From a virus: DNA of 24,699 bases. The stretch is taken from IMG/VR virus record IMGVR_UViG_3300045988_176129, positions 1 to 24,699 of that record. One strand, written 5' to 3'. The position numbers and the translations under genes are program-made. The notes under the pieces are model-generated. The model was not told the origin of the DNA. It ran no database searches and saw nothing but the letters and a program-made list of their open reading frames with translations. Each line of letters begins with the position of its first letter. Position 1 is the stretch's first letter. Below, in pieces: positions 4,789 to 16,459 of this stretch.

Positions 4789-4812
4789 TTTTTTTGGTCA
4801 AAAGTGTTAAGA

Positions 4813-4841
4813 TTGACAAATAAAATATTTTTTGTTATAAT
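4813..4841 (+). promoter_or_regulatory. sigma-70-type promoter for the 4867-7622 operon
   Basis: TTGACA 4813-18, 17-nt spacer, TATAAT 4836-41, then AAAGGAG SD and ATG 4867. Confidence 0.6.
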
Positions 4842-4866
4842 TTATATATAGAATAAAGGAGAAAAT

Positions 4867-5184
4867 ATGAGAATATTGATTGTGGGATTTCAAGAGTATG
4901 AGACTCTTGATAAGATGATGCAAAAGCTAATAGAAAATGGGCAATGTTATATCTTTACTGTATTGTGCGGCGGTTGTGAATATAGTGAAGAAAAGAGTCT
5001 AGCTGAACAGTGGGCGATAAATAATGGCGCACCCATTGAATATGTATATGAAAAAGATGTGGATAAGCTTGTCGATAAAATAACGAAATCCGCCGATTAC
5101 CTAGTCGCGCAATCAGGCTCATATTTTTCAGATTGGATTATTAGAAAGATGAAATACATAGAAAAACACGGAAGCGTGATTTAA
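4867..5184 (+). CDS. SLOG/DUF2493-like (YspA-like Rossmann) protein
   Basis: MRILIVGFQEY...CYIFTVLCGG...AEQWAINNGAPIEY matches the DUF2493 pattern (vlvcGgRdf...vvhGGa.GAD.lA..WA...g.p). Assigned by recollection, not a search. Confidence 0.55.
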   Translation: MRILIVGFQEYETLDKMMQKLIENGQCYIFTVLCGGCEYSEEKSLAEQWAINNGAPIEYVYEKDVDKLVDKITKSADYLVAQSGSYFSDWIIRKMKYIEKHGSVI

Positions 5185-5193
5185 GGAGGGAAT

Positions 5194-5472
5194 ATGTTTC
5201 AAATAATAGCTACAATTATAGTAGGATATCTTATATTGGTTGCTTGTCAGTTAGCATATCTCATTTCTGCAAAAGAAGAAGATACTTTATTTGATACTTA
5301 TAAACATGTTTTTAGTTTTAAAATTTTATATAAAGAAACAAATTTAAATGAGTTAGGAGTAATATTATATCTTTTAATACAGATAATATTGTTCCTTCCA
5401 GCTGCAGCCGCATATTTTATTTATTGGTTATGTCATAAAAAGGAGAGGTTAAATGGTTTATCAAGGAAGTAA
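5194..5472 (+). CDS. small membrane protein (2 TM)
   Basis: GGAGGG SD; hydrophobic segments. Confidence 0.55.
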   Translation: MFQIIATIIVGYLILVACQLAYLISAKEEDTLFDTYKHVFSFKILYKETNLNELGVILYLLIQIILFLPAAAAYFIYWLCHKKERLNGLSRK

Positions 5473-6175
5473 AAATAGATTAACAAAATATATTGTTCCA
5501 ATAATACAAAAGGAAATAGATGAAAATAATATAACTACGTATATAGAGCCTTTTGTTGGAGGAGCTAATGTTATTGATAAAATTAGCTGTGAAAATAGGA
5601 TTGGCTCTGATATTAATGAAGAGCTAATCTCATTATTGAGATATATTCAAAAGGATAATAATATTTCTATTGCTCCGTCAGAATGTAGTTTTGAGCATTA
5701 TGCGGAAGTTAGAGAAGCTAGAAAGTTAAAAACCGAGAAATTTTCTAAGGAATATACTGCTTTAATTGGCTTTTGTGCAAGTTATGGCGGACGCTATTTT
5801 GATGGTGGATATGGTAGAGATGCTAAAGGTGGTAGAAGTATCTATGCAGAAAGATTAAAAAATTTAAAAGAACAAGCGCCGCATTTAGATGGAATAGAAT
5901 TTAAAAGCGGAGACTATCGGCAGTATGAAAGCACGAAATTCGCATTATTTTATATGGATCCACCATATAAGGGAACTAAACAATATTCTACCAAGTTTAT
6001 AAATTATGATGAATTTTATGATTTTTGTAGGAATTTAAGTAAAAACAATATTGTTTTAATTAGTGAATATAATATGCCGCCTGATTTTAAATGTATTTGG
6101 GAGAAAGAAAGAACTGTAAAGCAAGATGTGAATAAGAAAGGAATGAAAGCAACAGAAAAGTTGTTTATGATATAA
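5453..6175 (+). CDS. dam: DNA N6-adenine methyltransferase, Dam/D12 class
   Basis: YQGSKNRL N-terminus, motif I EPFVGGANV (FxGxG), catalytic DPPY tetrad at 5947-5958. GGAGAGG SD. Overlaps the upstream ORF by 20 nt. Confidence 0.85.
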   Translation: MVYQGSKNRLTKYIVPIIQKEIDENNITTYIEPFVGGANVIDKISCENRIGSDINEELISLLRYIQKDNNISIAPSECSFEHYAEVREARKLKTEKFSKEYTALIGFCASYGGRYFDGGYGRDAKGGRSIYAERLKNLKEQAPHLDGIEFKSGDYRQYESTKFALFYMDPPYKGTKQYSTKFINYDEFYDFCRNLSKNNIVLISEYNMPPDFKCIWEKERTVKQDVNKKGMKATEKLFMI

Positions 6176-6176
6176 T

Positions 6177-6368
6177 ATGTTATTAGATATTACAGACAAA
6201 GAATTAATTCATTATTTAAATTTAATAGATAATAAAGGCATAGAAAAAGATTTGTGTCATTGGAAACGTGATATTAAAAAAAGAATAAAAAAAGGATATA
6301 TAGAAAATAAGCATGATGAATTAGTCTATTGGTGTATAGGAATTTCCGATGGTTGGATAAAATATTAA
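6177..6368 (+). CDS. hypothetical protein (63 aa)
   Basis: ATG 1 nt after the dam stop, possible translational coupling; weak SD. Confidence 0.45.
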   Translation: MLLDITDKELIHYLNLIDNKGIEKDLCHWKRDIKKRIKKGYIENKHDELVYWCIGISDGWIKY

Positions 6369-6381
6369 GGGGGTTGCCGCA

Positions 6382-6669
6382 ATGAAGAAGATTATAATTA
6401 TGTTAGGAATAATAATGTGTTTTAGTTTAACTGGATGCACCAATACTCAAGAAGGACTAAAGGATTATAATATCCATTCTCATTTAATATCAATAGATGG
6501 AGAGAATGATTTATACTATTATTCTACTACACATATTATATATGTAGTATTTAATGAAGGTAGTAACTATCGCGGGTATGGATATATGGCGCCTTATTAT
6601 TCAGAGAATGGAAAATTGTGTGTATATGATGTTCAAAAGAAAGAGATAATAGAATTGGAGGATAAGTAG
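6382..6669 (+). CDS. putative lipoprotein
   Basis: Signal peptide MKKIIIMLGIIMCFSLTGC with lipobox LTG|C; GGGGG SD. Confidence 0.65.
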   Translation: MKKIIIMLGIIMCFSLTGCTNTQEGLKDYNIHSHLISIDGENDLYYYSTTHIIYVVFNEGSNYRGYGYMAPYYSENGKLCVYDVQKKEIIELEDK

Positions 6670-6670
6670 A

Positions 6671-6838
6671 ATGGAATATTTAAACGCGGCAGACATGAAG
6701 AAGGGCTATTATGGTATAACGGTTGAAATGCTACCTATCCTTGTTAAGGAACTTAAAAATATGGGATATGAAATAACATTTAAGTCAGATAAATTAGAGA
6801 GAAGTGGAAGTGGAATAATAATAAGTTGGAGGAAATAA
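6671..6838 (+). CDS. hypothetical small protein (55 aa)
   Basis: GGAGGA SD 8 nt upstream. Starts 2 nt after the previous stop. Not in the ORF track (<60 aa). Confidence 0.5.
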   Translation: MEYLNAADMKKGYYGITVEMLPILVKELKNMGYEITFKSDKLERSGSGIIISWRK

Positions 6839-6840
6839 AA

Positions 6841-7062
6841 ATGTTTACAGTTACTTTTCCGCTTGATATAGGAACAGAAGTTGAATTGAGTGATGGTAGC
6901 CGCGGTACGGTTGCCGCATATGGAAGCGTAAGGGGAGAAAATAATTTTAGTGTTTGGGTATCTGGAATAGGAGAGTTGTGGTGCGGAGAATATATTTTAG
7001 GAACTGAGGAAGATAGAAACGACCCTAATAAAAAGTTCTATTGTTTTGAAATAAAGGAGTAA
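6841..7062 (+). CDS. hypothetical protein (73 aa)
   Basis: GGAGGA SD 8 nt before ATG 6841. The track start 6826 sits inside the SD. Confidence 0.6.
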   Translation: MFTVTFPLDIGTEVELSDGSRGTVAAYGSVRGENNFSVWVSGIGELWCGEYILGTEEDRNDPNKKFYCFEIKE

Positions 7063-7065
7063 AGT

Positions 7066-7338
7066 ATGCTCAGGGAAATGGTGGAAGAAGAAATAAGAGA
7101 GTATAAGAAAAAGAAAAAAGAGTTTTATGACAATCCTTTACATTGGAATAATAATATGCGGAGGAGGCATGGCTTACCTGTATTAAGAGGTAAAGTAAAT
7201 AAATATCGTTTAAAGAGATGCTCTGGTTTTCATCCTACCGCAGAACTTTTTTATTTATTCGATGATGTTGTTTCAAAAGAAGTAGAGAGAAATTTAGAAA
7301 ACTATTTTAATTTTTTTGCGGAAATAAAGGAGATATAA
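7066..7338 (+). CDS. hypothetical basic protein (90 aa)
   Basis: AAAGGAG SD; tightly packed in operon. Confidence 0.6.
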   Translation: MLREMVEEEIREYKKKKKEFYDNPLHWNNNMRRRHGLPVLRGKVNKYRLKRCSGFHPTAELFYLFDDVVSKEVERNLENYFNFFAEIKEI

Positions 7339-7340
7339 TA

Positions 7341-7622
7341 ATGGTAAAAATAGATACATCATATGGAAAATTTTCTGTTGAAAAATCAGATGGAAATATA
7401 ATAAAAGCTAAAGATATACATGAATTAATAGACATATTACTTCCAGAATCAACAGACAATCCCACGACACAAGTTGTTACATATGTAAGTGATGAGGATG
7501 CGCTTGCTGACGCAACTGATTTAACTGTATTGGCGGCATTATGTTGTTGGGGCAATCGGTTATATAAAGGAGATAACATTAAATTGACAATAACTGCGGA
7601 ATATTGTCCTGAAGATAAATGA
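7341..7622 (+). CDS. hypothetical acidic protein (93 aa)
   Basis: AAAGGAGA SD; last gene before the 1.1-kb non-coding region. Confidence 0.6.
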   Translation: MVKIDTSYGKFSVEKSDGNIIKAKDIHELIDILLPESTDNPTTQVVTYVSDEDALADATDLTVLAALCCWGNRLYKGDNIKLTITAEYCPEDK

Positions 7623-8010
7623 TTGGGGTATTAGATTGAAAATTAATTTGGAATGTATATTTTTTCCGTCTTTGTGAATTGAAAAATGATTTGGAATGTT
7701 GGTGTGGGTGCTAAACCCCTTTTCTCAGATTTAATTTTTAAAAATCCCGAAACTATACCCCCGCCTTAATATTTTTGCAACAGAGAAAAAATTCTCTGAG
7801 TATATTGCTAGTTAGGTGAAAAAATTTTGCGAGCACTGTCTGTAGCACCGACCTATCGAAGCGTTGTGAGATCATTTATTAGGCGGGCAAAGAAGATATA
7901 AAGAAGAGTTATATCAAAGATAATAAGAGATATAAAGAAATAATTTTTATATCATTTTTCTTTTGATTACATAATGCGTCGTCTCGGTGACAACGGAGCC
8001 GAGCCGATTT

Positions 8011-8160
8011 TACGTTAGTAGTTAGGCTTAACTAATTTTAGTTGCATACGGCTAACTCTAGTTAGTTCTGACTAACTCCTGTTAGGCTGAACTAACTCAG
8101 GTTCGTCTTAGCTAACCTTGGTTAGACTGAACTAACTTCTGTTAATCACCGCTAACCTCT
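8011..8160. repeat. tandem array of ~7 degenerate ~20-21-bp direct repeats (GTTAGGCTGAACTAACTCnn)
   Basis: Visible periodicity: agttaggcttaactaatttt / agttgcatacggctaactct / agttagttctgactaactcct / gttaggctgaactaactcag / gttcgtcttagctaaccttg / gttagactgaactaacttct / gttaatcaccgctaacctct. Confidence 0.65.
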
Positions 8161-8180
8161 GGGGTGGGCGGGTGGGGGAG
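8161..8180 (+). other. G-quadruplex-type G-tract (GGGGTGGGCGGGTGGGGG), copy 1 of 5
   Basis: Four or more G3-5 runs with 1-nt loops in a 30% GC background. Same relative position as the tracts at 9469, 10669, 11381 and 12786. Confidence 0.6.
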
Positions 8181-8190
8181 GCTTGGGATA

Positions 8191-8219
8191 ATTATACCAC
8201 AAATCTATCTTTTTGTCAA
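8191..8219 (-). promoter_or_regulatory. leftward extended -10 sigma-70 promoter, cassette copy 1
   Basis: rc TTGACA (8214-19), 17-nt spacer, rc TGGTATAAT (8191-99). Confidence 0.5.
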
Positions 8220-8267
8220 GTAGTAATTTTTCACAAAAATAAAAAATTTTTTTGTGCATTTTGCCTA

Positions 8268-8296
8268 TTGACATGGGCGCATTTTTGTGCTATAAT
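8268..8296 (+). promoter_or_regulatory. sigma-70 promoter with no downstream ORF (putative ~450-nt ncRNA 8303-8750)
   Basis: TTGACA 8268-73, 17-nt spacer, TGcTATAAT 8291-96. No SD/ORF before the terminator at ~8715-8752. Confidence 0.5.
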
Positions 8297-8316
8297 TAAA
8301 ATGATATTAAAATGAT

Positions 8317-8351
8317 ACTTTAGCACGTTAAAGTGTCATCACTGCAAAGCG
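8317..8351. repeat. conserved ~35-nt hairpin element (ACTTTAG-CACG-TTAAAGT + GTYATCACTGNRAAGCG), copy a
   Basis: Family also at 8527-8562, 8607-8640, 8683-8703, 9421-9456, 10628-10663, 12725-12760 and 20699-20733. The stem covaries through G-U pairs. Confidence 0.6.
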
Positions 8352-8375
8352 AAAGACTAAGTTAAAATCCGTTTA

Positions 8376-8405
8376 ATTATACCACACAGTCGTATGGTTT
8401 GTCAA
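8376..8405 (-). promoter_or_regulatory. leftward sigma-70 promoter, cassette copy 2 (faces the plus promoter at 8268 across element a)
   Basis: rc TTGACA (8400-05), 18-nt spacer, rc TATAAT (8376-81). Confidence 0.45.
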
Positions 8406-8430
8406 TAGTAAAATGCAAAAAAAATTGCAC

Positions 8431-8462
8431 AAATTTTAATTTCCCATTTTGTGCAATCTGCA
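8431..8462. promoter_or_regulatory. operator-like inverted repeat TTGCACAA-N16-TTGTGCAA
   Basis: Perfect 8-bp arms. A member of the TGCACAA motif family enriched in intergenic DNA. Confidence 0.45.
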
Positions 8463-8479
8463 CAACGAACAAGTGTTTG

Positions 8480-8690
8480 GTTAGCCTTAACTAACTGTCC
8501 AAACAAACGTTCGGTTAGGCAAGACTAACTTTAGTGCGTTAAAGTGCTATCACTTTGCAGTGAACGTGTGGTCGGTTAGGTAAGACTAACTCAAGTTAGG
8601 AGAGGCTAACTTTAGCACACTAAAGTGATGCAGTAGCAAAGAGTTAGTTAAGACTAATTTAAGTTAGTTCAGACTAACATTAACACTTTA
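8480..8690. repeat. second cluster of GTTAG..GACTAACT iteron-like repeats interleaved with three copies of the 35-nt element
   Basis: ggttagccttaactaact / cggttaggcaagactaact / cggttaggtaagactaactc / agttagttaagactaatt / agttagttcagactaac. Confidence 0.55.
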
Positions 8691-8714
8691 ATGTGTTAAA
8701 GTGTTAATACAAAA

Positions 8715-8752
8715 GAGTAGCACAAAGAACACCTGTTCTCTGTGCTTTTTTC
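8715..8752. terminator. bidirectional rho-independent terminator
   Basis: Hairpin GCACAAAGAACACC/TGTTCTCTGTGC followed by TTTTTTCTTTTAT on plus; T-rich on minus as well. Confidence 0.5.
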
Positions 8753-8754
8753 TT

Positions 8755-8880
8755 TTATTTGTTCAATGATTCAATAATCGTAAAACCTGCCATTTCCGCA
8801 TGTCTTATTTCTTCTGTTGTCATTTCTGTTTTTCCTATTGTGCTATTGTTTAATTTTACTATTACTTTTCTCATGGCCAT
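8755..8880 (-). CDS. hypothetical small protein (41 aa) on minus strand inside the early region
   Basis: AAGGAAAGG SD plus its own minus promoter (8910-8938). MAMRKVIVKLNNSTIGKTEMTTEEIRHAEMAGFTIIESLNK. Not in the track (<60 aa). Confidence 0.4.
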   Translation of the reverse strand: MAMRKVIVKLNNSTIGKTEMTTEEIRHAEMAGFTIIESLNK

Positions 8881-8909
8881 CACCAATTCCTTTCCTTATC
8901 TTTATACTA

Positions 8910-8938
8910 ATAATACATCAAAGCCAAACAAAAGTCAA
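8910..8938 (-). promoter_or_regulatory. sigma-70 promoter (minus) for the 8880->8755 gene
   Basis: rc TTGACT (8933-38), 17-nt spacer, rc TATTAT (8910-15). Divergent from the plus promoter at 8981. Confidence 0.45.
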
Positions 8939-8980
8939 TAGTTTTTTACAAAAAAAATAAAAAATATTTTTAAAAAAGTA

Positions 8981-9009
8981 TTGACAAATTGTTAGTTATC
9001 TGGTATTAT
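8981..9009 (+). promoter_or_regulatory. sigma-70 promoter
   Basis: TTGACA 8981-86, 17-nt spacer, TATTAT 9004-09. Confidence 0.5.
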
Positions 9010-9047
9010 TAGATTACAAGGTAAGGAAAGAGAGGAAAGAAACAAAA

Positions 9048-9119
9048 GTGGAGGAACTTATTCAGTGGCAAAGAGAGTTAGGTATTAGTGAGGAACAGAT
9101 AAAAATTAACATGAGGTGA
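9048..9119 (+). CDS. possible GTG-initiated micro-ORF (23 aa, MEELIQWQRELGISEEQIKINMR)
   Basis: Only ORF downstream of promoter 8981. SD AGAGAGG is 11-12 nt from the GTG, which is weak. Confidence 0.2.
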   Translation: MEELIQWQRELGISEEQIKINMR

Positions 9120-9157
9120 TAATTCAATACTAGATGATGAAATAATAAAAATAAGTG

Positions 9158-9186
9158 TTGACAAATGAAGTATTAGATGTTATAAT
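9158..9186 (+). promoter_or_regulatory. sigma-70 promoter
   Basis: TTGACA 9158-63, 17-nt spacer, TATAAT 9181-86. Confidence 0.55.
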
Positions 9187-9239
9187 AAATATATAATAAA
9201 GGAAAGGAAACCCCACCAAAGGGGTAAAGGTAAAAGATT

Positions 9240-9377
9240 ATGAAAACACCAAAAACAAGAGGATTTTATGAGTTCAAAGATGGTACAGTGGTTTGGTTTG
9301 CTGGATTAAGTGCTAGTGAGCAGAGAAAAGAGATTGCTAAGCATGGCGCAATCATAAAGTTTACACATACTAACTAA
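9240..9377 (+). CDS. hypothetical small protein (45 aa)
   Basis: Leader AAAGGAAAGG-hairpin(CCCC/GGGG)-AAAGGTAAAAGATT-ATG. MKTPKTRGFYEFKDGTVVWFAGLSASEQRKEIAKHGAIIKFTHTN. Followed by a terminator. Confidence 0.5.
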   Translation: MKTPKTRGFYEFKDGTVVWFAGLSASEQRKEIAKHGAIIKFTHTN

Positions 9378-9380
9378 AAA

Positions 9381-9410
9381 TGGGGGCGGTCGCTAAACCG
9401 CTCCTTTTAT
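9381..9410. terminator. rho-independent terminator (bidirectional)
   Basis: GGGGCGG-tcgctaaa-CCGCTCC with a G-U pair, then TTTTAT. The minus strand also has ATTTTTAG after the stem. Confidence 0.55.
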
Positions 9411-9468
9411 CTACCCTTGCCGCTTTAGCACGTTGAAGTGTTATCGCTTCACAGCGTCGCACCCCAGT

Positions 9469-9488
9469 ATTGGGCGGGTGGGTGGGTT
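9469..9488 (+). other. G-quadruplex-type G-tract (GGGCGGGTGGGTGGG), copy 2
   Basis: Preceded by a CCCC-agtatt-GGG mini-hairpin. Confidence 0.55.
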
Positions 9489-9497
9489 ATATATAAT

Positions 9498-9526
9498 ATT
9501 ATACCACATTTTCGTCCAGTTGTCAA
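9498..9526 (-). promoter_or_regulatory. leftward extended -10 promoter, cassette copy 3
   Basis: rc TTGACA (9521-26), 17-nt spacer, rc TGGTATAAT (9498-9506). Confidence 0.5.
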
Positions 9527-9649
9527 GAGTAAAAATTCACAAAAGTAAAGAAAATTTTTTGTAACTATTGCACATTGACTTCTAATGTCAATGGCAAAAA
9601 TAGCCAAAGATCTGCCGCACATTTTATGCAACTTTTTTATCAAAAATAG

Positions 9650-9678
9650 TTGACATGTAATAATTCTTTTGTTATAAT
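9650..9678 (+). promoter_or_regulatory. sigma-70 promoter
   Basis: TTGACA 9650-55, 17-nt spacer, TATAAT 9673-78. Leader GTATACATAAGATAAAGGAAA is shared with promoter 10858. Confidence 0.55.
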
Positions 9679-9720
9679 GTATACATAAGATAAAGGAAAA
9701 AGAAAGAGAGGTAAAAAATT

Positions 9721-9939
9721 ATGGAATACAGAACAATTACAGCAGAGGATTTATACAACGCATTAGTAGAGGTTTGCGGAGTATCTGAGGAATTTATCAG
9801 TGGGGCAGTTGCCGTTGGTGGATTCACGAAGGAAACAATGCATGATGTAGCCTATTATAAAAGCGGTTATCAAACCGTTGAGGATTGGGTTGACGCTATT
9901 ACCGATGAATTTTTAGAAGAGTTAGAAAAGGAGGACTAA
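9721..9939 (+). CDS. hypothetical acidic protein (72 aa)
   Basis: AGAGAGGTAA SD. Confidence 0.6.
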   Translation: MEYRTITAEDLYNALVEVCGVSEEFISGAVAVGGFTKETMHDVAYYKSGYQTVEDWVDAITDEFLEELEKED

Positions 9940-9943
9940 TACA

Positions 9944-10111
9944 ATGCCTAAATTAAGAGATGAAACATTAAGAGAACAGCTCATGCTTACATTGATTAAA
10001 AAGCGTGGACATGAGGACAGAGAGGTTATCCAGTTTTGCAATCTTTGCGAACTTAAAGAATTAAGCGATAAAACAATAAGAGATATTTTTGATAGGTTGA
10101 TAAAAGAATAG
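9944..10111 (+). CDS. hypothetical small protein (55 aa)
   Basis: GGAGGA SD 9929-34. Not in the track. Confidence 0.5.
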   Translation: MPKLRDETLREQLMLTLIKKRGHEDREVIQFCNLCELKELSDKTIRDIFDRLIKE

Positions 10112-10123
10112 GAGGTATCTATA

Positions 10124-10279
10124 ATGAATGATAAAGAGACATTAAAAGATATTTTTTCAAAAGCAAAAATTGAAATCCTCACCGAAGAAGAGGATTATTT
10201 AGAGATAGCAACAAGGGGTTACAATATTGTTAGCCTTACTTTTGATAAAGATGGAAAATTAACTAAAATTTTTGCTTGA
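10124..10279 (+). CDS. hypothetical small protein (51 aa)
   Basis: GGAGG SD 10111-15. Stop overlaps the -35 of the next promoter. Confidence 0.5.
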   Translation: MNDKETLKDIFSKAKIEILTEEEDYLEIATRGYNIVSLTFDKDGKLTKIFA

Positions 10280-10304
10280 CATTTTATCTCTACTAATGTA
10301 TAAT
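10276..10304 (+). promoter_or_regulatory. sigma-70 promoter
   Basis: TTGACA 10276-81, 17-nt spacer, TATAAT 10299-304. Confidence 0.5.
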
Positions 10305-10339
10305 TAAAGTATCAAAAGAAAAGAGAAGGTACAAAAGTT

Positions 10340-10579
10340 ATGAGAGATTTTTTTAATATTAAGGATGACTACTACAGATTTGAAATCTATGACCTTACTG
10401 CAATTTTAACAATTTTAAATGTTGTGTTCGTGCTCATGGGTTATTGGTGGGCGCCGATATTTGGACTTGTAAACTGTGCAATTTGTTTAACAATGAATGT
10501 TATTAACAGGTTGCACATAAACGCCTATCTTACTCAGGTCGCGTTAATAATTTTAAATGTTTACTTTTTAACCTTGTAG
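10340..10579 (+). CDS. small membrane protein (79 aa, 2 TM)
   Basis: AGAGAAGGTA SD; hydrophobic. Confidence 0.6.
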   Translation: MRDFFNIKDDYYRFEIYDLTAILTILNVVFVLMGYWWAPIFGLVNCAICLTMNVINRLHINAYLTQVALIILNVYFLTL

Positions 10580-10586
10580 TAAAGGG

Positions 10587-10620
10587 GCGGATGCTAATAT
10601 TTTAGCATCTGCTTTTTTTG
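10587..10620 (+). terminator. rho-independent terminator
   Basis: GCGGATGCTAA-tatt-TTAGCATCTGC then TTTTTTTG. Confidence 0.6.
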
Positions 10621-10668
10621 TTTGTTACACTTTAACACGTTAAAGCGTAATCACTGAGAAGCGCAGAA

Positions 10669-10698
10669 GGGGTCCGACTTAGGGTGGTAGGGTGGGTA
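10669..10698 (+). other. G-quadruplex-type G-tract (GGGGtccgacttaGGGTGGTAGGGTGGG), copy 3
   Basis: Same cassette position. Confidence 0.5.
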
Positions 10699-10705
10699 TA
10701 GATAT

Positions 10706-10735
10706 ATTATAACACATTTCTTGCCCAGTTGTCAA
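10706..10735 (-). promoter_or_regulatory. leftward extended -10 promoter, cassette copy 4
   Basis: rc TTGACA (10730-35), 18-nt spacer, rc TGTTATAAT (10706-14). Confidence 0.45.
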
Positions 10736-10857
10736 TAGTTAAAATTCACAAAAATGATTAAATTTTTTGTTACTATTGACTATTGACAAAAAATTACAAT
10801 GTGCAATAGTAACAAAAAACTTAATGCTAATTTATTCAACTTTTTTCTACTTTTTTA

Positions 10858-10886
10858 TTGACTTTTAACGCTTAAAGCCTTATAAT
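10858..10886 (+). promoter_or_regulatory. sigma-70 promoter
   Basis: TTGACT 10858-63, 17-nt spacer, TATAAT 10881-86. Confidence 0.55.
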
Positions 10887-10939
10887 GTATACATAAGATA
10901 AAGGAAAGGAAATCCAATAAGGATTAAAGGTAAAGAATT

Positions 10940-11284
10940 ATGAGAACAGCAAAGGTGATATTTATTTCAGAAGAAGAGAAAAGCATGATTGACAGATTAA
11001 AAAAGGCATATATGGCAACTGATTCAGGTAAAAAGAAAAACGCTAGAATCGGAGTTGTTCTCACTGAGATGTGGTATGAGGATAGTCTCAGTTTCGAGGA
11101 TTTCCAAATAGATGAAATAGACTGGAATATGATAGACGATATATTAACAGCTTATGAAGATGAGCCATTAAGAGATAATGAAGGTTATATCTTTGATAAA
11201 GAAGATATGCTGGATGCATTGGCGGACTTTGACCCGTTAGCAGATTCTAAAATATACCATGATTATAAAATTATGATAATGTAA
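10940..11284 (+). CDS. hypothetical acidic protein (114 aa)
   Basis: Leader AAAGGAAAGG-hairpin(AATCC/GGATT)-AAAGGTAAAGAATT-ATG. Confidence 0.6.
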   Translation: MRTAKVIFISEEEKSMIDRLKKAYMATDSGKKKNARIGVVLTEMWYEDSLSFEDFQIDEIDWNMIDDILTAYEDEPLRDNEGYIFDKEDMLDALADFDPLADSKIYHDYKIMIM

Positions 11285-11288
11285 GAAA

Positions 11289-11320
11289 AAAGGCAAGCAC
11301 TTTTTATGCTTGCCTTTATT
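11289..11320 (+). terminator. rho-independent terminator
   Basis: AGGCAAGC-actttttat-GCTTGCCT then TTATTAT. Confidence 0.55.
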
Positions 11321-11380
11321 ATAGCTTAAAAGTTAGTTGTAACTAACTAAGATTAGACTCGACTAACTCCGGTCTTCTCC
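11321..11380. repeat. third short cluster of GTTAG/ACTAACT iteron-like repeats
   Basis: aagttagttgtaactaactaagattagactcgactaactcc. Confidence 0.45.
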
Positions 11381-11408
11381 GGGGTGGGTGGGAGGGGGAG
11401 GGTGGAGG
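11381..11408 (+). other. G-quadruplex-type G-tract (GGGGTGGGTGGGAGGGGGAGGGTGGAGG), copy 4
   Basis: Same cassette position. The leftward -10 here is degenerate (TTAGCA). Confidence 0.55.
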
Positions 11409-11564
11409 ATAAGTTTAGCACAAATCAGCTTTTTTGTCAATTGGTAAAAATTCACAAAAGTAAAGGAAAATTTTTAGTATTATTGACTATTGTATCTTTT
11501 TGTCAATGTGCAATAGTAACAAAATTTTAAACTTTAATTTGTGCATTTTTTTTCTTCAAAACAC

Positions 11565-11592
11565 TTGCAATTTATAACCAAAGTGATATAAT
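11565..11592 (+). promoter_or_regulatory. sigma-70 promoter
   Basis: TTGCAA 11565-70, 16-nt spacer, TATAAT 11587-92. Confidence 0.5.
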
Positions 11593-11616
11593 AAATAATG
11601 TAAGGAGGCGATAACA

Positions 11617-11730
11617 ATGATAGTAATAATCAATGATACAAAGTTTGGTTTAATGCTAGTTGACTCTGAGACTGGTGAGATATTAGCTGAGGGCAAACAG
11701 GAAATAATAAATTTTATAAAAAGTTGTTGA
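11617..11730 (+). CDS. hypothetical micro-protein (37 aa)
   Basis: AAGGAGG SD. MIVIINDTKFGLMLVDSETGEILAEGKQEIINFIKSC. Confidence 0.4.
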   Translation: MIVIINDTKFGLMLVDSETGEILAEGKQEIINFIKSC

Positions 11731-11755
11731 CAAATAAAGCACAAAGTGATATAAT
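11727..11755 (+). promoter_or_regulatory. sigma-70 promoter
   Basis: TTGACA 11727-32, 17-nt spacer, TATAAT 11750-55. Confidence 0.55.
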
Positions 11756-11809
11756 AAATACAAGATAAAGGAAAGGGAATCCAAAAAAAGGATTTAAAGG
11801 TAAAAAGAT

Positions 11810-11980
11810 ATGAGAAAAATAGTAGTAAAAACAAATGGACAGATAATAATGACAATAGCAACTAGCGGCGTTGCTAAAATAATTCAGATGAACGATACAA
11901 CTTATAGATATACAGATATATGGGGCGATAGTAAGACATTCAAAGTTAGGAAAGGCTCTGAAGTAACTTTGGAAGATTAA
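11810..11980 (+). CDS. hypothetical small protein (56 aa)
   Basis: Leader with AATCC-A7-GGATT hairpin and AAAGGTAAAAAGAT-ATG. Confidence 0.5.
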   Translation: MRKIVVKTNGQIIMTIATSGVAKIIQMNDTTYRYTDIWGDSKTFKVRKGSEVTLED

Positions 11981-12033
11981 AATATATAATTAAGGGGCGG
12001 TTAGTTGATACCGCCCAGGAAGAGGGACATTGT

Positions 12034-12174
12034 ATGACAAAGCAGGAAATACTAGACTATATGGACGATTTTAAGGATGAATATGGAAGCTCATTTACAG
12101 ATTCAAATTTTGAGATAAGCAATATTATAGAAGAAGCATTAGACCTGTATTTTGATACAATAAAGGAGGCATAA
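12034..12174 (+). CDS. hypothetical small acidic protein (46 aa)
   Basis: GGAAGAGGG SD. Preceded by a GGGCGGT/ACCGCCC hairpin that lacks a T-tract. Confidence 0.45.
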   Translation: MTKQEILDYMDDFKDEYGSSFTDSNFEISNIIEEALDLYFDTIKEA

Positions 12175-12175
12175 T

Positions 12176-12298
12176 ATGAGCGCATTTGAGATTAAAAGAG
12201 ATTTAGAGGATGTATATGGCATCCGTCTTTGGGATGGACAGTGTTTGTGGTTTGGTAGTAGAGAAGAAAGAGATATTGCATTCTTGTTAATGCAGTAA
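12176..12298 (+). CDS. hypothetical small protein (40 aa)
   Basis: AAAGGAGG SD 12162-69. Confidence 0.45.
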   Translation: MSAFEIKRDLEDVYGIRLWDGQCLWFGSREERDIAFLLMQ

Positions 12299-12308
12299 GG
12301 AGGATAAT

Positions 12309-12488
12309 ATGGATATAGATGGATTATTATTTTTAGGAAAACCAGAAGATTATGCTATAAATATATTAAGAGAACATCATAGCTATTTCATGCTAGAATC
12401 TCATGGGGATAGCTTTGATTATATCTATTGGGATAAATACAGGTTTGTTTTTATCAATAAAATCTGTACAAAGGTAACATTAAAATAA
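12309..12488 (+). CDS. hypothetical small protein (59 aa)
   Basis: AAGGAGGA SD 12297-304. Confidence 0.5.
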   Translation: MDIDGLLFLGKPEDYAINILREHHSYFMLESHGDSFDYIYWDKYRFVFINKICTKVTLK

Positions 12489-12504
12489 TAAAGGAGCAAT
12501 GAAT

Positions 12505-12681
12505 ATGAAGATTAAAAAAGAAATAGTCATGACTCAAAAAGAGTATGACATGCTTAAAAAGTTAGAAGTCATATTTGAGAATAGCCCTATGTATGATGAC
12601 TGCTCTTTTGGTGATTTTATTTACTCTATAGTAGAAGGAAGCTGCACTGAAAATTATGGTTATGATTTAATAATAGAATAA
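12505..12681 (+). CDS. hypothetical small protein (58 aa)
   Basis: AAGGAG SD 12491-96. The ATG at 12499 is too close to the SD, so 12505 is preferred. Confidence 0.55.
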   Translation: MKIKKEIVMTQKEYDMLKKLEVIFENSPMYDDCSFGDFIYSIVEGSCTENYGYDLIIE

Positions 12682-12686
12682 AATGC

Positions 12687-12716
12687 GGGCGGAGAGACAT
12701 TCTCCGCCTTTTATCT
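12687..12716. terminator. rho-independent terminator
   Basis: GGCGGAGAG-acat-TCTCCGCC then TTTTAT. Confidence 0.6.
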
Positions 12717-12785
12717 GCGGTTATCACTTCACCACGCTAAAGTGTTATTACTGTGAAGCGTGAAGCCTCGACCTTACCCCACTTT

Positions 12786-12801
12786 GGGGTGGGTGGGTGG
12801 G
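12786..12801 (+). other. G-quadruplex-type G-tract (GGGGTGGGTGGGTGGG), copy 5
   Basis: Canonical (G3N1)4. Preceded by CCCC-acttt-GGGG. Confidence 0.6.
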
Positions 12802-12809
12802 CTTAAAAT

Positions 12810-12838
12810 TATTATACCACAGATTACTGTCTTTGTCA
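12810..12838 (-). promoter_or_regulatory. leftward extended -10 promoter, cassette copy 6
   Basis: rc TTGACA (12833-38), 17-nt spacer, rc TGGTATAAT (12810-18). Confidence 0.5.
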
Positions 12839-12886
12839 ATAGATAAATTATCCTAAAATTAAAAAATTTTTTGTGCAATATTTTAC

Positions 12887-12915
12887 TTGACTTTTAATGT
12901 ATTATCACTTATAAT
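12887..12915 (+). promoter_or_regulatory. sigma-70 promoter (first of a tandem pair)
   Basis: TTGACT 12887-92, 17-nt spacer, TATAAT 12910-15. Confidence 0.5.
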
Positions 12916-12919
12916 AAAT

Positions 12920-13020
12920 ATAGAAATTAAAGATAAGACCCCTACAAAGTAGACAAGGTGGGTTAGCTTTTATAACTGGCTTGCTTTGTTGAAAGTAGGG
13001 GCGCATAATGAAAAAATAAG
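12920..13020 (+). ncRNA. candidate structured leader / small RNA between tandem promoters
   Basis: Nested helices CCCCTAC...GTAGGGG, CAAAG...CTTTG and CAAGG...CTTG. No ORF. Confidence 0.25.
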
Positions 13021-13023
13021 TGT

Positions 13024-13052
13024 TGACAAAAGAAAATGAATATGATATAATA
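13024..13052 (+). promoter_or_regulatory. sigma-70 promoter
   Basis: TTGACA 13024-29, 17-nt spacer, TATAAT 13047-52. Confidence 0.55.
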
Positions 13053-13086
13053 AATACATAATAAAGGAAAAGAGAGGTAATAAAGT

Positions 13087-13548
13087 ATGAGAGAGTTTGA
13101 AAAAGTATTGGTATTTGATATGGATGGCACAATAGCTAATCTATATGGAGTAAATAATTGGCTTGAGTCATTGAGAGCGTATGACCCCAGCCCTTATGAA
13201 AAGGCAATGCCCCTATATGACATGGATATGCTTAATTCTATATTACATATCATAAAATCTAAGGGTTGGCATATTGTAGTTACAAGCTGGCTTTCAAAGG
13301 AATCCACCCCTATATATGATAAGGCAGTCCGCAAAGCTAAAAGAGATTGGTTAAAAGAATGGGGCGTCCCATATGATGAAATACATCTTGTAAAGTATGG
13401 AACACCAAAGCATAGAGTAACAAGGTATCCTTTTCAGGTGTTAGTTGATGATAACGCAGATGTGCGGAGTGCATGGCATGGACGCACAATAGATGCAAAC
13501 AAAGATATTATAAACGAACTTATAAAAATAGTTATGGATGAATTTTAG
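13087..13548 (+). CDS. HAD-superfamily hydrolase, 5'(3')-deoxyribonucleotidase-like
   Basis: HAD motif I VFDMDGTIA at the N-terminus. Overall resemblance to the NT5C-type dNMP nucleotidases common in large phages. Confidence 0.6.
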   Translation: MREFEKVLVFDMDGTIANLYGVNNWLESLRAYDPSPYEKAMPLYDMDMLNSILHIIKSKGWHIVVTSWLSKESTPIYDKAVRKAKRDWLKEWGVPYDEIHLVKYGTPKHRVTRYPFQVLVDDNADVRSAWHGRTIDANKDIINELIKIVMDEF

Positions 13549-13597
13549 GCGGAGGGGCATATATGGCCCGCCCCCCAATTAAAAAGGAGGAATATAT

Positions 13598-13915
13598 ATG
13601 AATTTAGAGGATTTTGTAGCAAGTGAATTAAGAAAAACTAAATTTTATGATAAAGATAATAACATGTTTCATCCCTGCGTTTCATTGTTTATAGAAAAAG
13701 ACGCATATATAGAAATGTATATAGAGGATATGATTTCTGTTTTTGTAGGACAGTATGCTTCTAAAAAGCATAAACAGAGTGATTATAAAGTATCTACAGA
13801 GCATGTGTCCGATTCTCCTGGGTTAGATAAATATATAACTTTTATATCATATGCAGAATATGATGGAGAAAAAGTTAATATTGAAGCATTTACTATTGAT
13901 TCTTACTGTTGCTAG
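13598..13915 (+). CDS. hypothetical protein (105 aa)
   Basis: AAAGGAGG SD. Preceded by a GC-rich hairpin at 13549-13585 without a T-tract. Confidence 0.6.
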   Translation: MNLEDFVASELRKTKFYDKDNNMFHPCVSLFIEKDAYIEMYIEDMISVFVGQYASKKHKQSDYKVSTEHVSDSPGLDKYITFISYAEYDGEKVNIEAFTIDSYCC

Positions 13916-13925
13916 GAGGCTATAT

Positions 13926-14150
13926 ATGATGAAAAATTTAAAAACTATATCAATAATTACAATAGTGGTGACAGAAATAATTCACTTTATCCTTGCTATT
14001 GCTTTTGTTGGTATTATGGTAATATTAACTAAATACAGTTTTTCATGGAAAACTGTTATATGTATCTATTTCGTAATAGACTGGATAAAAGGTTTACAGT
14101 ATAGTTATGAGTTATTACGAGTTGGGTTTATTGTTGGCAGGTTTAAATGA
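13926..14150 (+). CDS. small membrane protein (74 aa, 2 TM)
   Basis: AGGAGG SD 13911-16. The track's 13851 start is an upstream in-frame extension. Confidence 0.55.
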   Translation: MMKNLKTISIITIVVTEIIHFILAIAFVGIMVILTKYSFSWKTVICIYFVIDWIKGLQYSYELLRVGFIVGRFK

Positions 14151-14158
14151 AAAAACAC

Positions 14159-14187
14159 TTGACAAATAAAATATAATATGATATGAT
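14159..14187 (+). promoter_or_regulatory. sigma-70 promoter
   Basis: TTGACA 14159-64, 17-nt spacer, TATGAT 14182-87. Confidence 0.5.
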
Positions 14188-14219
14188 AGATATATCAAAT
14201 GAAAGAGAGGTATAATAAT

Positions 14220-14444
14220 ATGAAGATTACAGAAACTAAAAAAGCAACAATAGAAGTTACAGATGAGGAATATCGCACTATTCAGACTTTCTGTAAATGG
14301 TTAAATGATAACTTATGTTGTGAAGATGTATCCTGTGCAGTGCAAGTGTTTGGAGAAGAAGAGCTTCTTATTTTTGAAGGTATATCTCCAACAATGAACA
14401 ATGTTGATATAGAGATTAAAATAAAAAATTTTAATATATCATAA
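14220..14444 (+). CDS. hypothetical protein (74 aa)
   Basis: AGAGAGGTA SD. The track start 14199 has no SD. Confidence 0.55.
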   Translation: MKITETKKATIEVTDEEYRTIQTFCKWLNDNLCCEDVSCAVQVFGEEELLIFEGISPTMNNVDIEIKIKNFNIS

Positions 14445-14475
14445 TAAATATATCAAATGAAAGGAAATAGTGTAT

Positions 14476-14634
14476 ATGACTAAAAATGAATTTATGGATA
14501 GTATTTTAAAAGAGATTGGCTCTTATTATGATGAATGTGAAAATAGTATTTTAAAGGAGATTGAAGAAAATGAGGTTATAGAGACTGCTAGAGATTTTCC
14601 ACGGTCATACATAAATTCTGATGAAAATTTGTAA
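14476..14634 (+). CDS. hypothetical small acidic protein (52 aa)
   Basis: AAAGGAAA SD. Not in the track. Confidence 0.45.
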   Translation: MTKNEFMDSILKEIGSYYDECENSILKEIEENEVIETARDFPRSYINSDENL

Positions 14635-14646
14635 AGCATAAAAATT

Positions 14647-14695
14647 ATGCACAAAAAGCCTGAGGTAGAAAATATCTCAGGCTTTTTGTGCATTT
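14647..14695. terminator. bidirectional terminator / large perfect palindrome
   Basis: TGCACAAAAAGCCTGAGG-tagaaaatat-CCTCAGGCTTTTTGTGCA. Arms carry the TGCACAA motif. T-rich flanks on both strands. Confidence 0.55.
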
Positions 14696-14758
14696 TGACG
14701 AAAAATAGAATCGGCATTTTGCACAAAAGCGTAAATGAAAATTTGTATGAATTGCCTA

Positions 14759-14787
14759 TTGACAAGCACCCCTGTATGTGATATAAT
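14759..14787 (+). promoter_or_regulatory. sigma-70 promoter firing into a GC hairpin
   Basis: TTGACA 14759-64, 17-nt spacer, TATAAT 14782-87. Confidence 0.5.
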
Positions 14788-14790
14788 TGG

Positions 14791-14819
14791 GCGGCGCGTG
14801 CCCTGCCCTTACGCGCCGC
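14791..14819. other. perfect 9-bp GC hairpin (GCGGCGCGT-gccctgccctt-ACGCGCCGC) between convergent promoters
   Basis: Both facing promoters would start transcription inside or adjacent to it. Confidence 0.55.
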
Positions 14820-14822
14820 AAT

Positions 14823-14852
14823 ATTATACCATAGTCCCCTATGGTTTGTCAA
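14823..14852 (-). promoter_or_regulatory. leftward extended -10 promoter, cassette copy 7
   Basis: rc TTGACA (14847-52), 18-nt spacer, rc TGGTATAAT (14823-31). Confidence 0.5.
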
Positions 14853-15067
14853 GACTAATTTTTAAAAAAATTGCACAAATTTTGCGATTCCCGAAAGACT
14901 TTTATTGTGCAAAATGACGAATTTTAACTTTGTGAAATCTGCACAAAACCCGCCCCGCATTTTTAGTTATTTTGCCATATTGTATTTTACCCTCTAATGT
15001 GATATTATAATACTTGTAAGGAAGAGAAAAACAAAAGCAAGCAACCTTAAAGAAAATAAAAAAAGTG

Positions 15068-15096
15068 CTTGACATTCTACTTCCTAGGGTGTATAA
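15068..15096 (+). promoter_or_regulatory. sigma-70 promoter
   Basis: TTGACA 15068-73, 17-nt spacer, TATAAT 15091-96. Confidence 0.55.
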
Positions 15097-15131
15097 TAAA
15101 TACATAATAAAGAAAAGAGAGGTACAACAAC

Positions 15132-16094
15132 ATGAAAAGAAAGTATTATTTAACATTAGACACAGAGACAGCTACAATGCCATTTGTAAAGTATATGGAT
15201 TTAAGTCCAAAGGCAAGACAACAGGTGGCAATAGCAAAGCCCCTTGTATATGATATAGGATGGTGTATCACTACAACTCAGGGAGATGTTATAAAAAAGG
15301 TAAACTATCTTATACAGGAAACATTCTTTGTTCCACAGGTATTTAATACCGCCTATTATAAGAATAAGCGACCTATTTATATGGAGCTTCTTAAAAAAGG
15401 CGAGATTGAAGTTAGAAACTGGAATAATGCTATAGAAGAACTGATAGCCGACCTTGATTTTTGTGATATGGCATGCGCATATAACGCATGTTTTGATTAC
15501 AAGAAGGCTATCCCGTTTACAGAACGTTATATTAAAGCATTATATAGCGACTACTATAATGAATGGGAAGATATGCAGAGAAAATCTGCTGAAAGGATCG
15601 CTGAAGGTGTTGATGAAAGCGAAAATCCAGAATATCTTGACCCTATTTTCCAGATTAGAGGATATGAGTTTCCTATATTGGATTTATGGGGCATGGCTTG
15701 TAAAAGACTTATAAATGTTAATAGATATAAGAAATTCTGTTATGAGAATAACTTGTTTACTAATTCAGCGATGTATTTTAAAACAAGTGCTGAGACAAGT
15801 TTTCAGTATCTCATGGATAATGTGGATTTTATCGAAGACCATACCGCATTATCAGACGCACTTATTGAGAGTGCAATTCTTACAAAGGGATTAAAAAAGG
15901 GTAAAGTTGAGCCAGATATTACAGCTTTCCCTTTTAGGGAGTTAGGTTATACATATTGCAATTGCCCTAAAAAGTATATCCCAAATGTGGCAAGTGCCTT
16001 TGAAGAATACTTAAATAAAAATAGCAATCATCCATCTAACGCATGGTGGACAAGAATTGAAAGTATTTATGAGGGGCTTATGGCTTACTTATAA
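15132..16094 (+). CDS. DEDDh-family 3'-5' exonuclease (DnaQ/RNase T-like)
   Basis: Exo I LTLDTETAT, Exo II AYNACFDYKKA, Exo III HTALSDALIESAIL. AGAGAGGTAC SD. Confidence 0.8.
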   Translation: MKRKYYLTLDTETATMPFVKYMDLSPKARQQVAIAKPLVYDIGWCITTTQGDVIKKVNYLIQETFFVPQVFNTAYYKNKRPIYMELLKKGEIEVRNWNNAIEELIADLDFCDMACAYNACFDYKKAIPFTERYIKALYSDYYNEWEDMQRKSAERIAEGVDESENPEYLDPIFQIRGYEFPILDLWGMACKRLINVNRYKKFCYENNLFTNSAMYFKTSAETSFQYLMDNVDFIEDHTALSDALIESAILTKGLKKGKVEPDITAFPFRELGYTYCNCPKKYIPNVASAFEEYLNKNSNHPSNAWWTRIESIYEGLMAYL

Positions 16095-16152
16095 AATATA
16101 TGGGCGGTGGCTATGGGAAACTTAAAACCATAGTCGCCCCTAAAAATAATAG

Positions 16153-16181
16153 TTGACATGTAAACAATAATTTGGTATAAT
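16153..16181 (+). promoter_or_regulatory. sigma-70 promoter
   Basis: TTGACA 16153-58, 17-nt spacer, TGGTATAAT 16173-81. Confidence 0.55.
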
Positions 16182-16211
16182 GATTATAGAAAATAAAGGA
16201 GGACATAAAAC

Positions 16212-16373: not shown

Positions 16374-16381
16374 AAAAGATG

Positions 16382-16410: not shown

Positions 16411-16459
16411 ATAAGAGTAGTAAATAACACATAACAAAAAAAAGAAAGGTGGAATTAGT

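Follow-up and report, generated by a model that had tools for sequence, protein, structure and literature searches.

The N25 promoter of phage T5 provides a close described parallel to the element considered here. Pyrimidine-rich start regions placed at N25 promoters lower productive synthesis about 10-fold, a loss that is relieved only on supercoiled templates (PMC12464699). The window analysed in this work, the whole 24,699-nucleotide (nt) stretch of IMG/VR virus record IMGVR_UViG_3300045988_176129 (24.7 kb, 31.6% GC), is part of a 140,464-bp human-gut metagenome contig and carries five G-rich tracts on its plus strand, each placed directly downstream of a leftward promoter on whose RNA-like strand the tract reads as a series of C runs. 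These promoters share with N25 the near-consensus sequence of a phage early promoter for the host RNA polymerase. The native, purine-rich start of N25 is similar to that of the promoters driving the window genes (AUAAUAAAGGAAAGG-type), whereas its pyrimidine-rich 'anti' variant, which escapes about 10-fold less and responds to supercoiling, is similar to the leftward promoters (PMC12464699). The 'anti' start is a laboratory construct, whereas the pyrimidine start region of the window is conserved in nature, is nearly pure C and follows a strict CCCN repeat. The reading that we tentatively favour is that the tract may be a G-free, pyrimidine-rich start region setting the behaviour of RNA polymerase and the RNA 5′ end at antisense promoters.

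A promoter-adjacent G-quadruplex (G4) motif has been described at pilE of Neisseria gonorrhoeae, where a 16-nt G3N1-2 motif (GGGTGGGTTGGGTGGG), like the tracts of the window, lies beside a dedicated sigma-70-type promoter whose non-coding transcript begins at the motif (PMC3547852). Promoter adjacency holds here for 43/43 of the tracts collected from the window and its relatives. The two systems differ in the strand involved. At pilE it is the C-rich strand that is paired with the RNA, the G strand being left free, and inversion abolishes function (PMC3547852), whereas here the RNA-like strand is the C-rich one in 43/43 cases, which makes the G strand the template, and five to eight copies are present per genome.

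On the RNA side, RsaE, RNAIII and LhrC1-5 are short non-coding RNAs with their own promoters and with redundant unpaired C triplets (predicted to be unpaired here), frequently with a 5′ hairpin in related members and sometimes in multiple copies, as in the five copies of LhrC (PMC2790875, PMC4132741). These C-rich-box RNAs differ from the tracts in that their UCCC motifs are distributed over separate loops and bind defined ribosome-binding sites that are rich in G. In the tracts four CCC runs follow one another at the very 5′ end, separated by single, unconserved nucleotides, and neither a target nor a conserved fold was found for them.

Lambda OOP and the SPbeta RNAs SR4 (bsrG) and SR6 (yonT) are short RNAs from convergent promoters and overlap a phage mRNA at its 3′ end, and the putative leftward unit of the window has the same layout. 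Unlike these single loci, which have defined targets and depend on RNase III, the unit of the window recurs at each cassette, and its leader, a C-tract or a hairpin, lies outside the overlap. In T4-type phages the PeSL cassettes reportedly combine a stem-loop with an early promoter of the host type and flank the small early genes of hyperplastic regions (Arbiol et al. 2010). They are likewise repeated regulatory units made of a stem-loop and an early promoter, but their promoter is co-directional with the genes and no G/C tract is present, whereas here the promoter points backward and the structure lies at the start site. The kinds of element behind the module (start-region control, promoter-adjacent G4 motifs and C-rich leaders) are known; no published description of the tract-promoter module itself was found.

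G-tracts and leftward promoters at the cassette ends

The plus strand between about 4.8 and 20.6 kb contains numerous small genes arranged in cassettes, each driven by a near-perfect TTGACA-17-TATAAT promoter. The first G-tract (8161-8178, the feature extending to 8187) reads GGGGTGGGCGGGTGGGGG, with an extra GGG at 8185-8187, and is the complement of the leader AAGCCUCCCCCACCCGCCCACCCC. Its leftward promoter (8219-8191, minus strand) has the form TTGACA-17-TGTGGTATAAT, matches the consensus at 12/12 positions with an extended -10, and ends its -10 box 12 nt before the main C runs. The second tract (9472-9486), GGGCGGGTGGGTGGG, is the complement of CCCACCCACCCGCCC and lies 11 nt from the -10 box of a 12/12 promoter with an extended -10 (9526-9498, minus strand). 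The third (10669-10696) is weak and degenerate, GGGG-9 nt-GGGTGGTAGGGTGGG; its core GGGTGGTAGGGTGGG holds three tight G3 runs and a GG, the fourth G run being placed 9 nt off, and its promoter (10735-10706, minus strand) is a 12/12 match with an extended -10 and a spacer of 18. Five G runs make up the fourth tract (11381-11405, canonical part 11381-98), GGGGTGGGTGGGAGGGGGAGGGTGG, which is the complement of CCACCCUCCCCCUCCCACCCACCCC and follows a TTGACA-17-TAAACT promoter (11440-11412, minus strand; 10/12, with TG). The fifth (12786-12801), GGGGTGGGTGGGTGGG, is separated by a 9-nt gap from a 12/12 promoter with an extended -10 (12839-12811, minus strand).

The initial annotation of the window had reported five G-tracts, each next to a leftward -10 box. 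All five are confirmed on the plus strand, the interval 9469-88 given for the second being slightly too wide, and all five have a sigma-70-type promoter with 10-12/12 consensus matches beside them. The strong pattern of four runs with 1-nt loops that had been ascribed to the tracts holds for four of them: the canonical (G3+N1)3G3+ motif is present in 4/5, and 10669-96 qualifies only via its 9-nt loop. ViennaRNA with G-quadruplex terms predicts that four tracts fold into a three-layer G4 and 10669-96 into one of two layers, which bears out, on paper, the G4 competence proposed for the plus strand. The C-rich character of the leftward RNA is equally borne out, the C runs lying on the RNA-like strand of the adjacent promoter.

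The tracts are clearly non-random, since GGGNGGGNGGG is matched 8 times against 0.03 expected from dinucleotide shuffles. No comparable G-run cluster is present on the minus strand of the window, and the restriction of the tracts to these sites, which the initial annotation had put forward as a check, was found in 38.4 kb of the same contig (the window together with L018 and L098, out of a genome of about 140 kb), where no further tracts were detected. The same annotation had argued that five occurrences by chance were implausible. The five copies are, however, paralogous boundary modules with promoter spacers and flanks in common and are therefore not independent events; the argument for selection rests on conservation in diverged relatives and not on the number of copies.

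Loci of relatives (L-numbered, about 0.9 Mb in total) were fetched by means of the sigma-like protein encoded in the window and of small early proteins. They contain 46 distinct tight C-run clusters, 43 of which are (CCCN)n tracts. Every one of these 43 has a TTGACA-16/18-TATAAT promoter with 0-2 mismatches whose -10 box ends 8-13 nt upstream (modes 9 and 11), and the three remaining, loose clusters are the only ones without promoter linkage. Seen from the promoters, at least three tight C runs follow on the RNA-like strand after 34 of 507 distinct near-consensus promoters, and G runs follow after none. A good promoter facing the tract from the opposite side is found at only 4/43 tracts. As the tract adjoins the leftward -10 box on its downstream side, it can be assigned to the start region of a leftward transcription unit: judged from the sequence, the C-tract is the initial transcribed region (about +3 to +18) and makes up the first 15-25 nt of a putative short non-coding leftward transcript.

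This start region is of a different composition from that of the promoters serving the genes. Over the first 20 nt, purines make up a fraction of 0.30-0.35 at the tract-bearing leftward promoters versus a mean of 0.77 at the gene-driving plus promoters of the window (Mann-Whitney p = 1e-5 for plus versus minus promoters). The gene-driving promoters (4800-20600) have purine-rich starts, AUAAUAAAGGAAAGG and AAGGAAAGAGAGG, and the leftward ones combine near-consensus -35 and -10 boxes (10-12/12) with a pyrimidine-rich non-template start region, the sequence makeup of N25anti. The AUAAUAAAGGAAAGG and AAGGAAAGAGAGG starts also resemble the start region of T5 N25 and the polypurine 5′ stabilisers of Bacillus phage mRNAs.

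The module is found in the close relatives L021 and L086-L097 (the sigma-like protein of L021 being 96% identical), in L033/L034 (66%) and in L063 (54%, six copies). In L063 the discriminator, the flanks and the palindrome are changed, and the order of terminator, palindrome, tract and backward promoter is retained. In a set of seven sequences whose flanks are near-identical, all 12 run positions are invariant and each of the three spacer positions is variable (Fisher p = 0.002). Across the 43 tracts the length of the C run is exactly three in 142/162 runs and the spacers are of 1 nt in 113/119 cases (on the C strand A 76, G 25, T 12); four runs are present in 31/43 tracts, three in 11/43 and five in 1/43. 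Minimum-energy folds predict the C-tract to be unpaired at the RNA 5′ end in most units, a short helix enclosing it as a loop in several subtypes. Pattern scans of IMG/VR for a G-tract with a -10 box returned only unrelated loci or poly-C runs, and the tract module is not general among the viruses of that collection.

At other boundaries the position of the tract is taken by a GC hairpin, as had been noticed at first. Within the window such hairpins were found at 14791-14819, between the facing promoters 14759-14787 (plus) and 14852-14823 (minus) of the boundary 14759-14852; at 17423-17459, directly after the leftward promoter 17488-17459 of the boundary 17423-17488 (minus strand); and at 20558-20584, between the promoters 20527-20555 (plus) and 20615-20587 (minus) of the boundary 20527-20615. 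The arrangement extends to the family, with about 40 cases of a backward promoter followed by a GC-rich, near-perfect hairpin, counting the three window boundaries and relatives such as L001, L003, L014 and L031. The hairpin sequences are unconserved and their pairing is maintained by compensatory changes (for example L001 2201 versus L003 3046). The first paired base is most often located 7-9 nt past the -10 box (22/50 hairpin-class units, some of which are tract units), so that the hairpin would start at the presumed +1, the placement expected for an RNA 5′ stem-loop. Folding energy (16 vs 24) and G-U asymmetry (18 vs 17) are unbiased and do not assign the hairpins to a functional strand. 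Whether relatives always hold a G4 or a GC hairpin at the matching position had been put forward as a check. Tracts and hairpins are common there, but at the boundary orthologous to 8161-8219 L021 and L027 have a CU-rich tract of 20 nt whose opposite strand lacks G3 runs.

Start region, DNA structure or RNA

In the start-region reading an over-consensus sigma-A/sigma-70 promoter would fire leftward against the early genes at the end of the cassette, and the tract would be selected as a G-free, almost purely pyrimidine start region that takes the place of the +1 GC stem-loop of other boundaries. The leftward transcript would cross an operator-like palindrome or a GTTAG/CTAAC array and run into the terminator of the preceding cassette. 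The element is regarded as a start region or 5′ leader because of its link to the start site, its strand rule and its interchange with +1 hairpins and with the CU tract. As pyrimidine starts cut the output of N25 in a supercoil-dependent manner, we infer by analogy that the tract would render these promoters escape-limited and supercoiling-dependent, with high occupancy by RNA polymerase dwelling head-on at the cassette ends. Any transcript that escapes would begin with an unpaired, C-rich stretch and would lie antisense to the early mRNA at its 3′ end. Folding of the plus strand into a G4 is possible in this scenario and unnecessary to it.

Several points weigh against this reading. The exact arrangement of four runs of three with 1-nt spacers is the optimum for a G4 and is not predicted by a plain pyrimidine-rich start. 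The escape rule is derived from the RNA polymerase of E. coli, which may not be that of the host, and the position of the tract relative to the transcript depends on start sites placed from promoter geometry. The CU-rich replacement belongs to a single lineage and starts further from the -10 box. The expected end of the unit is imperfect as well, a leftward-competent terminator being present in 3/5 window units by terminator scan and at 10/43 tracts by a strict scan. Finally, no conserved fold or covariation was found in the body of the leftward RNA by RNAalifold over 14 units (-3.6 kcal/mol, 10 weak pairs).

The arrangement of the runs is best explained if a parallel G4 forms on the template strand at +3 to +18 (a cruciform in the hairpin class) and blocks or traps the host RNA polymerase in a supercoil-dependent manner, thus acting as an insulator, polymerase sink or timer; we consider this possible but unlikely. 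The pattern (G3N1)3G3 is the most G4-prone known, its runs are conserved and its spacers free, at least four runs are present in 32/43 tracts, and a three-layer G4 is predicted for four tracts in the window. The tie of the element to the start site of the promoter also fits, as do the hairpin equivalents, which are near-perfect palindromes with AT-rich flanks and compensatory changes (the L001 and L003 pair cited above). Yet 11/43 tracts have only three C3 runs, and the CU-rich tract of L021/L027 substitutes at an orthologous site. The orientation is the reverse of that at pilE, where the C strand is the one bound by the RNA (PMC3547852); since the G strand is here the template, transcription from the adjacent promoter leaves it paired. 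In subtypes S1 and S2 folding would face competition from a complementary C run located a few nt away from the tract, and the hairpins begin at about +1, as RNA 5′ stem-loops do, with loops of 7-13 nt that are poor for cruciform extrusion. Only slightly less probable, and still doubtful, is the broader proposal of a promoter-coupled non-B DNA switch, in which a G4 or cruciform exactly at the start site of the antisense promoter would lock the host RNA polymerase at every early-cassette boundary, would serve as a supercoil-sensing trap, insulator or timer, and might also seed the exchange of cassettes.

The initial annotation had considered the tract from the side of the plus genes, as a roadblock or termination enhancer for read-through. 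In such a model an RNA G4, or a non-template G4 with an R-loop, would stall or terminate rightward polymerases that have passed the terminator. R-loops are favoured when a G-rich RNA is made on a C-rich template, and mitochondrial CSBII offers a precedent for G4-dependent termination. The G runs of every copy are in the sense orientation with respect to the early genes, and in four of five cases the tract sits after a plus terminator; hairpins at the same position could act likewise. We nevertheless hold it improbable. Canonical terminators already lie upstream of those four tracts, and the 8161 tract is located 540 nt from the nearest plus open reading frame (ORF). A T-rich stretch (at least five T in 8 nt) follows only the 9472 tract, the others being followed by AGGCTTGG, TATAGATA, AGGATAAG and CTTAAAAT, and the window tracts as a set lack the U-rich stretch right 3′ of the structure that marks an intrinsic terminator. 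Termination of read-through leaves unaccounted for the fixed spacing of 8-13 nt to the leftward -10 box (43/43), on whose RNA the tract is C-rich, and between facing promoters the element takes the form of a palindrome serving both directions. The absence of four runs from 11/43 tracts and the CU-rich replacement also argue against a need for G4.

A slightly smaller chance is given to trans-acting multicopy small RNAs (sRNAs) whose tandem C triplets would serve as C-rich boxes pairing with G-rich ribosome-binding sites of the host, in a form of host takeover. The five to eight copies per genome each have a strong promoter of their own, and the C-tract is predicted to be unpaired, or enclosed as a loop in several subtypes. 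The sRNAs of low-GC Gram-positive bacteria typically show unpaired UCCC motifs, hairpins at the 5′ end and genes in multiple copies (PMC2790875, PMC4132741). Such a function leaves the strict 1-nt spacing unexplained, the RNA body has no conserved structure, and a contiguous seed is not conserved, as near-identical copies differ in their spacer letters. Against it stands also the comparison of the leader with 32 phage ribosome-binding sites, for which duplex energies were no better than those of shuffled leaders. Mimicry of the anti-Shine-Dalgarno sequence was rejected as well, CCUCC being present only in T-spacer tracts and pairing with phage ribosome-binding sites being no better than shuffled.

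The remaining possibilities are far less probable. Cassette exchange between co-infecting relatives could be started by a G4 or cruciform at the boundary, in the manner of the pilE G4 or of the T4-type PeSL units, and such a hot spot would suit the strong mosaicism of the early regions (a 45-amino-acid (aa) gene with differing neighbours, L088-L097), the position of the tracts exactly at cassette boundaries, their patchy occurrence among the lineages of the family and a promoter adjoining the G4 as in pilE. Its chances are very slim, given an orientation relative to the promoter opposite to that of pilE, where inversion abolishes function, and given that any repeated boundary sequence supports homologous exchange without a G4. 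Just as improbable is a site for a sequence-specific protein, recognising GGGTGGG on double- or single-stranded DNA for a Chi-like protection of entering linear DNA or as a regulator. Chi sites are G-rich and orientation-dependent, and GGGTGGG is present in 5/5 window tracts on one strand only. However, the spacers vary (A 76, G 25, T 12) and leave no invariant 7-8-mer, the constant distance to the -10 box is unaccounted for, and no copies were found outside the promoter context in 38 kb of the genome or in the relatives. Least probable of all is a tract without function of its own that hitch-hikes in a boundary module spread and homogenised by recombination: the five copies are indeed paralogous with shared spacers and flanks, but the run structure persists in L063 and L033 despite diverged flanks, discriminators and palindromes, and the runs are invariant next to variable spacer positions. 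A packaging or replication signal, also suggested at first, is unlikely for an element repeated five to eight times in the early region; a replication primer or origin was rejected on account of the five to eight copies within 5 kb and of the R-loop-poor orientation of C-rich RNA on a G-rich template, and a Rho-loading site on account of the short length of 15 nt and the misfit of the hairpin class.

Terminators, repeats and genome surroundings

Four of the tracts lie, as originally described, downstream of a plus-gene terminator. The terminators of the preceding plus cassettes are located at 9382-9405 (on the leftward strand a hairpin followed by CCCCATTTTT) and at 10581-10618 (with a weak T-run on the leftward strand). 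A bidirectional terminator at 11289-11317 separates the plus gene 10940-11284 from the fourth tract, and the terminator scan gave another on both strands at 12687-12709. The description fails at the 8161 tract, where the upstream element is a GTTAG/CTAAC array and not a terminator, the nearest plus ORF being 540 nt away.

Between tract and terminator an operator-like 20-bp palindrome of the family CACTTTAA-N4-TTAAAGTG is found at 9421-9440, behind the second tract, and further palindromes lie at 10628-10647 (CACTTTAACACGTTAAAGCG) and 12725-12744 (CACTTCACCACGCTAAAGTG). Followed by ATCACTGNGAAGCG, the 20-bp palindrome occurs at 8316, 8527, 8608, 8684, 9421, 10628, 12725 and 20698, that is, at each boundary and in a cluster at 8300-8700. 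The equivalent sites of L063 (5680-8330) are TCGAAC-N4-GTTCGA, which suggests a swap of operator specificity. Their G-U pairs by strand (133 vs 112, for a noisy motif) show no strand bias, on which ground a function on the RNA strand was rejected and the palindromes were treated as probable DNA sites. In this they may be compared with SPBRE, a 15-bp site in promoter regions bound by the master repressor MrpR (PMC10516654). The window belongs to the same broad phage group (homologues of YonG, YonD and YonB), and in both cases a short element is repeated intergenically at early operons. Compared by description, the likely counterparts of SPBRE are the palindromes (CACTTTAA-N4-TTAAAGTG, GTTAG-N-CTAAC) and not the C/G tract.

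The GTTAG-N6/7-CTAAC inverted-repeat array at 8012-8157 has seven units with a 20-bp period and would be transcribed from the first leftward promoter after the first tract. More such arrays lie at 8480-8680 and 11330-11369, and the half-sites are kept in the distant relatives L014, L021, L033, L063 and L091. The arrays resemble iterons, or operators to which a dimeric protein would bind, and possibly mark an origin, a partition site or a master regulatory region.

Some further observations concern the boundaries. Facing consensus promoters with -10 boxes about 35-48 bp apart around a GC hairpin occur at 14759-14852 and 20527-20615 and, in L031, at 371-475 and 3921-4025; at a distance of 35 bp such promoters enclose a palindrome able to serve both. 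As two polymerases cannot occupy both promoters together, the pair may be a transcriptional interference switch. At 19303-19366, and at 5843-5920 of L014, a consensus promoter is followed directly by a GC hairpin and a T run, forming a gene-less unit of about 35-45 nt. The sequence TCCCGAAAG is present at 14886, 17526 and 20648, about 35-50 bp upstream of the -35 box of three hairpin-type leftward promoters, and TTGTGCA/TGCACAA motifs are seen in AT-rich regions between divergent promoters. In the leaders of plus genes at 9205-9235, 10900-10935 and 11770-11805 a small hairpin (for example AAUCC-loop-GGAUU or CCCCACC-AAA-GGGG) is placed between two polypurine blocks before the start codon.

The homologues of SPbeta YonG, YonD and YonB among the window genes indicate an SPbeta-like gut phage. 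The gene of the sigma-like protein (3621-4709, minus strand; phrog_5767) encodes a product whose C-terminal residues 316-362 match endonuclease VII and HNH-type zinc-finger profiles. A group I intron (Rfam RF00028, 94.7 bits), accompanied by an ORF for a GIY-YIG homing endonuclease, splits a terminase-large-subunit-like gene, the region covering 650-911 and 838-1674 on the minus strand. Apart from this intron, scanning the full window against Rfam (E up to 1) gave only weak chance matches and nothing at the tracts, and a search of the window for tRNA and tmRNA genes found none. No similar DNA was detected among deposited phages by megablast, and sensitive blastn against them returned only 80-nt promoter-like matches to terminal repeats of Staphylococcus phages. 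The 45-aa early protein (9240-9377) occurs on at least 98 collection blocks among differing neighbour genes (L088-L097 versus the window), and by this sequence comparison the early region is highly mosaic at the level of whole cassettes.

Meaning for the phage family

The sigma-like protein has 5249 metagenome homologues at E <1e-20, many of them on contigs of 140-150 kb, and on these matches the window is assigned to a large phage family that is abundant in human gut and rumen metagenomes. If the non-B DNA switch were true, it would operate across this very large family of phages of about 140 kb from gut and rumen, and if the G4 reading were true, the tracts would be a clear case of a G4 of a bacterial virus at a defined distance from a promoter, of the easily testable (GGGT)4 type. 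If the start-region reading is true, these phages would tune the host RNA polymerase at antisense promoters via the first 15 transcribed nucleotides, and the tracts would be a natural counterpart, at every early cassette, of the laboratory 'anti' start regions. Under either reading the rule of a consensus promoter, 8-13 nt and (CCCN)3CCC is a sharp, searchable signature, and it offers a handle on the organisation and insulation of mosaic early genes.

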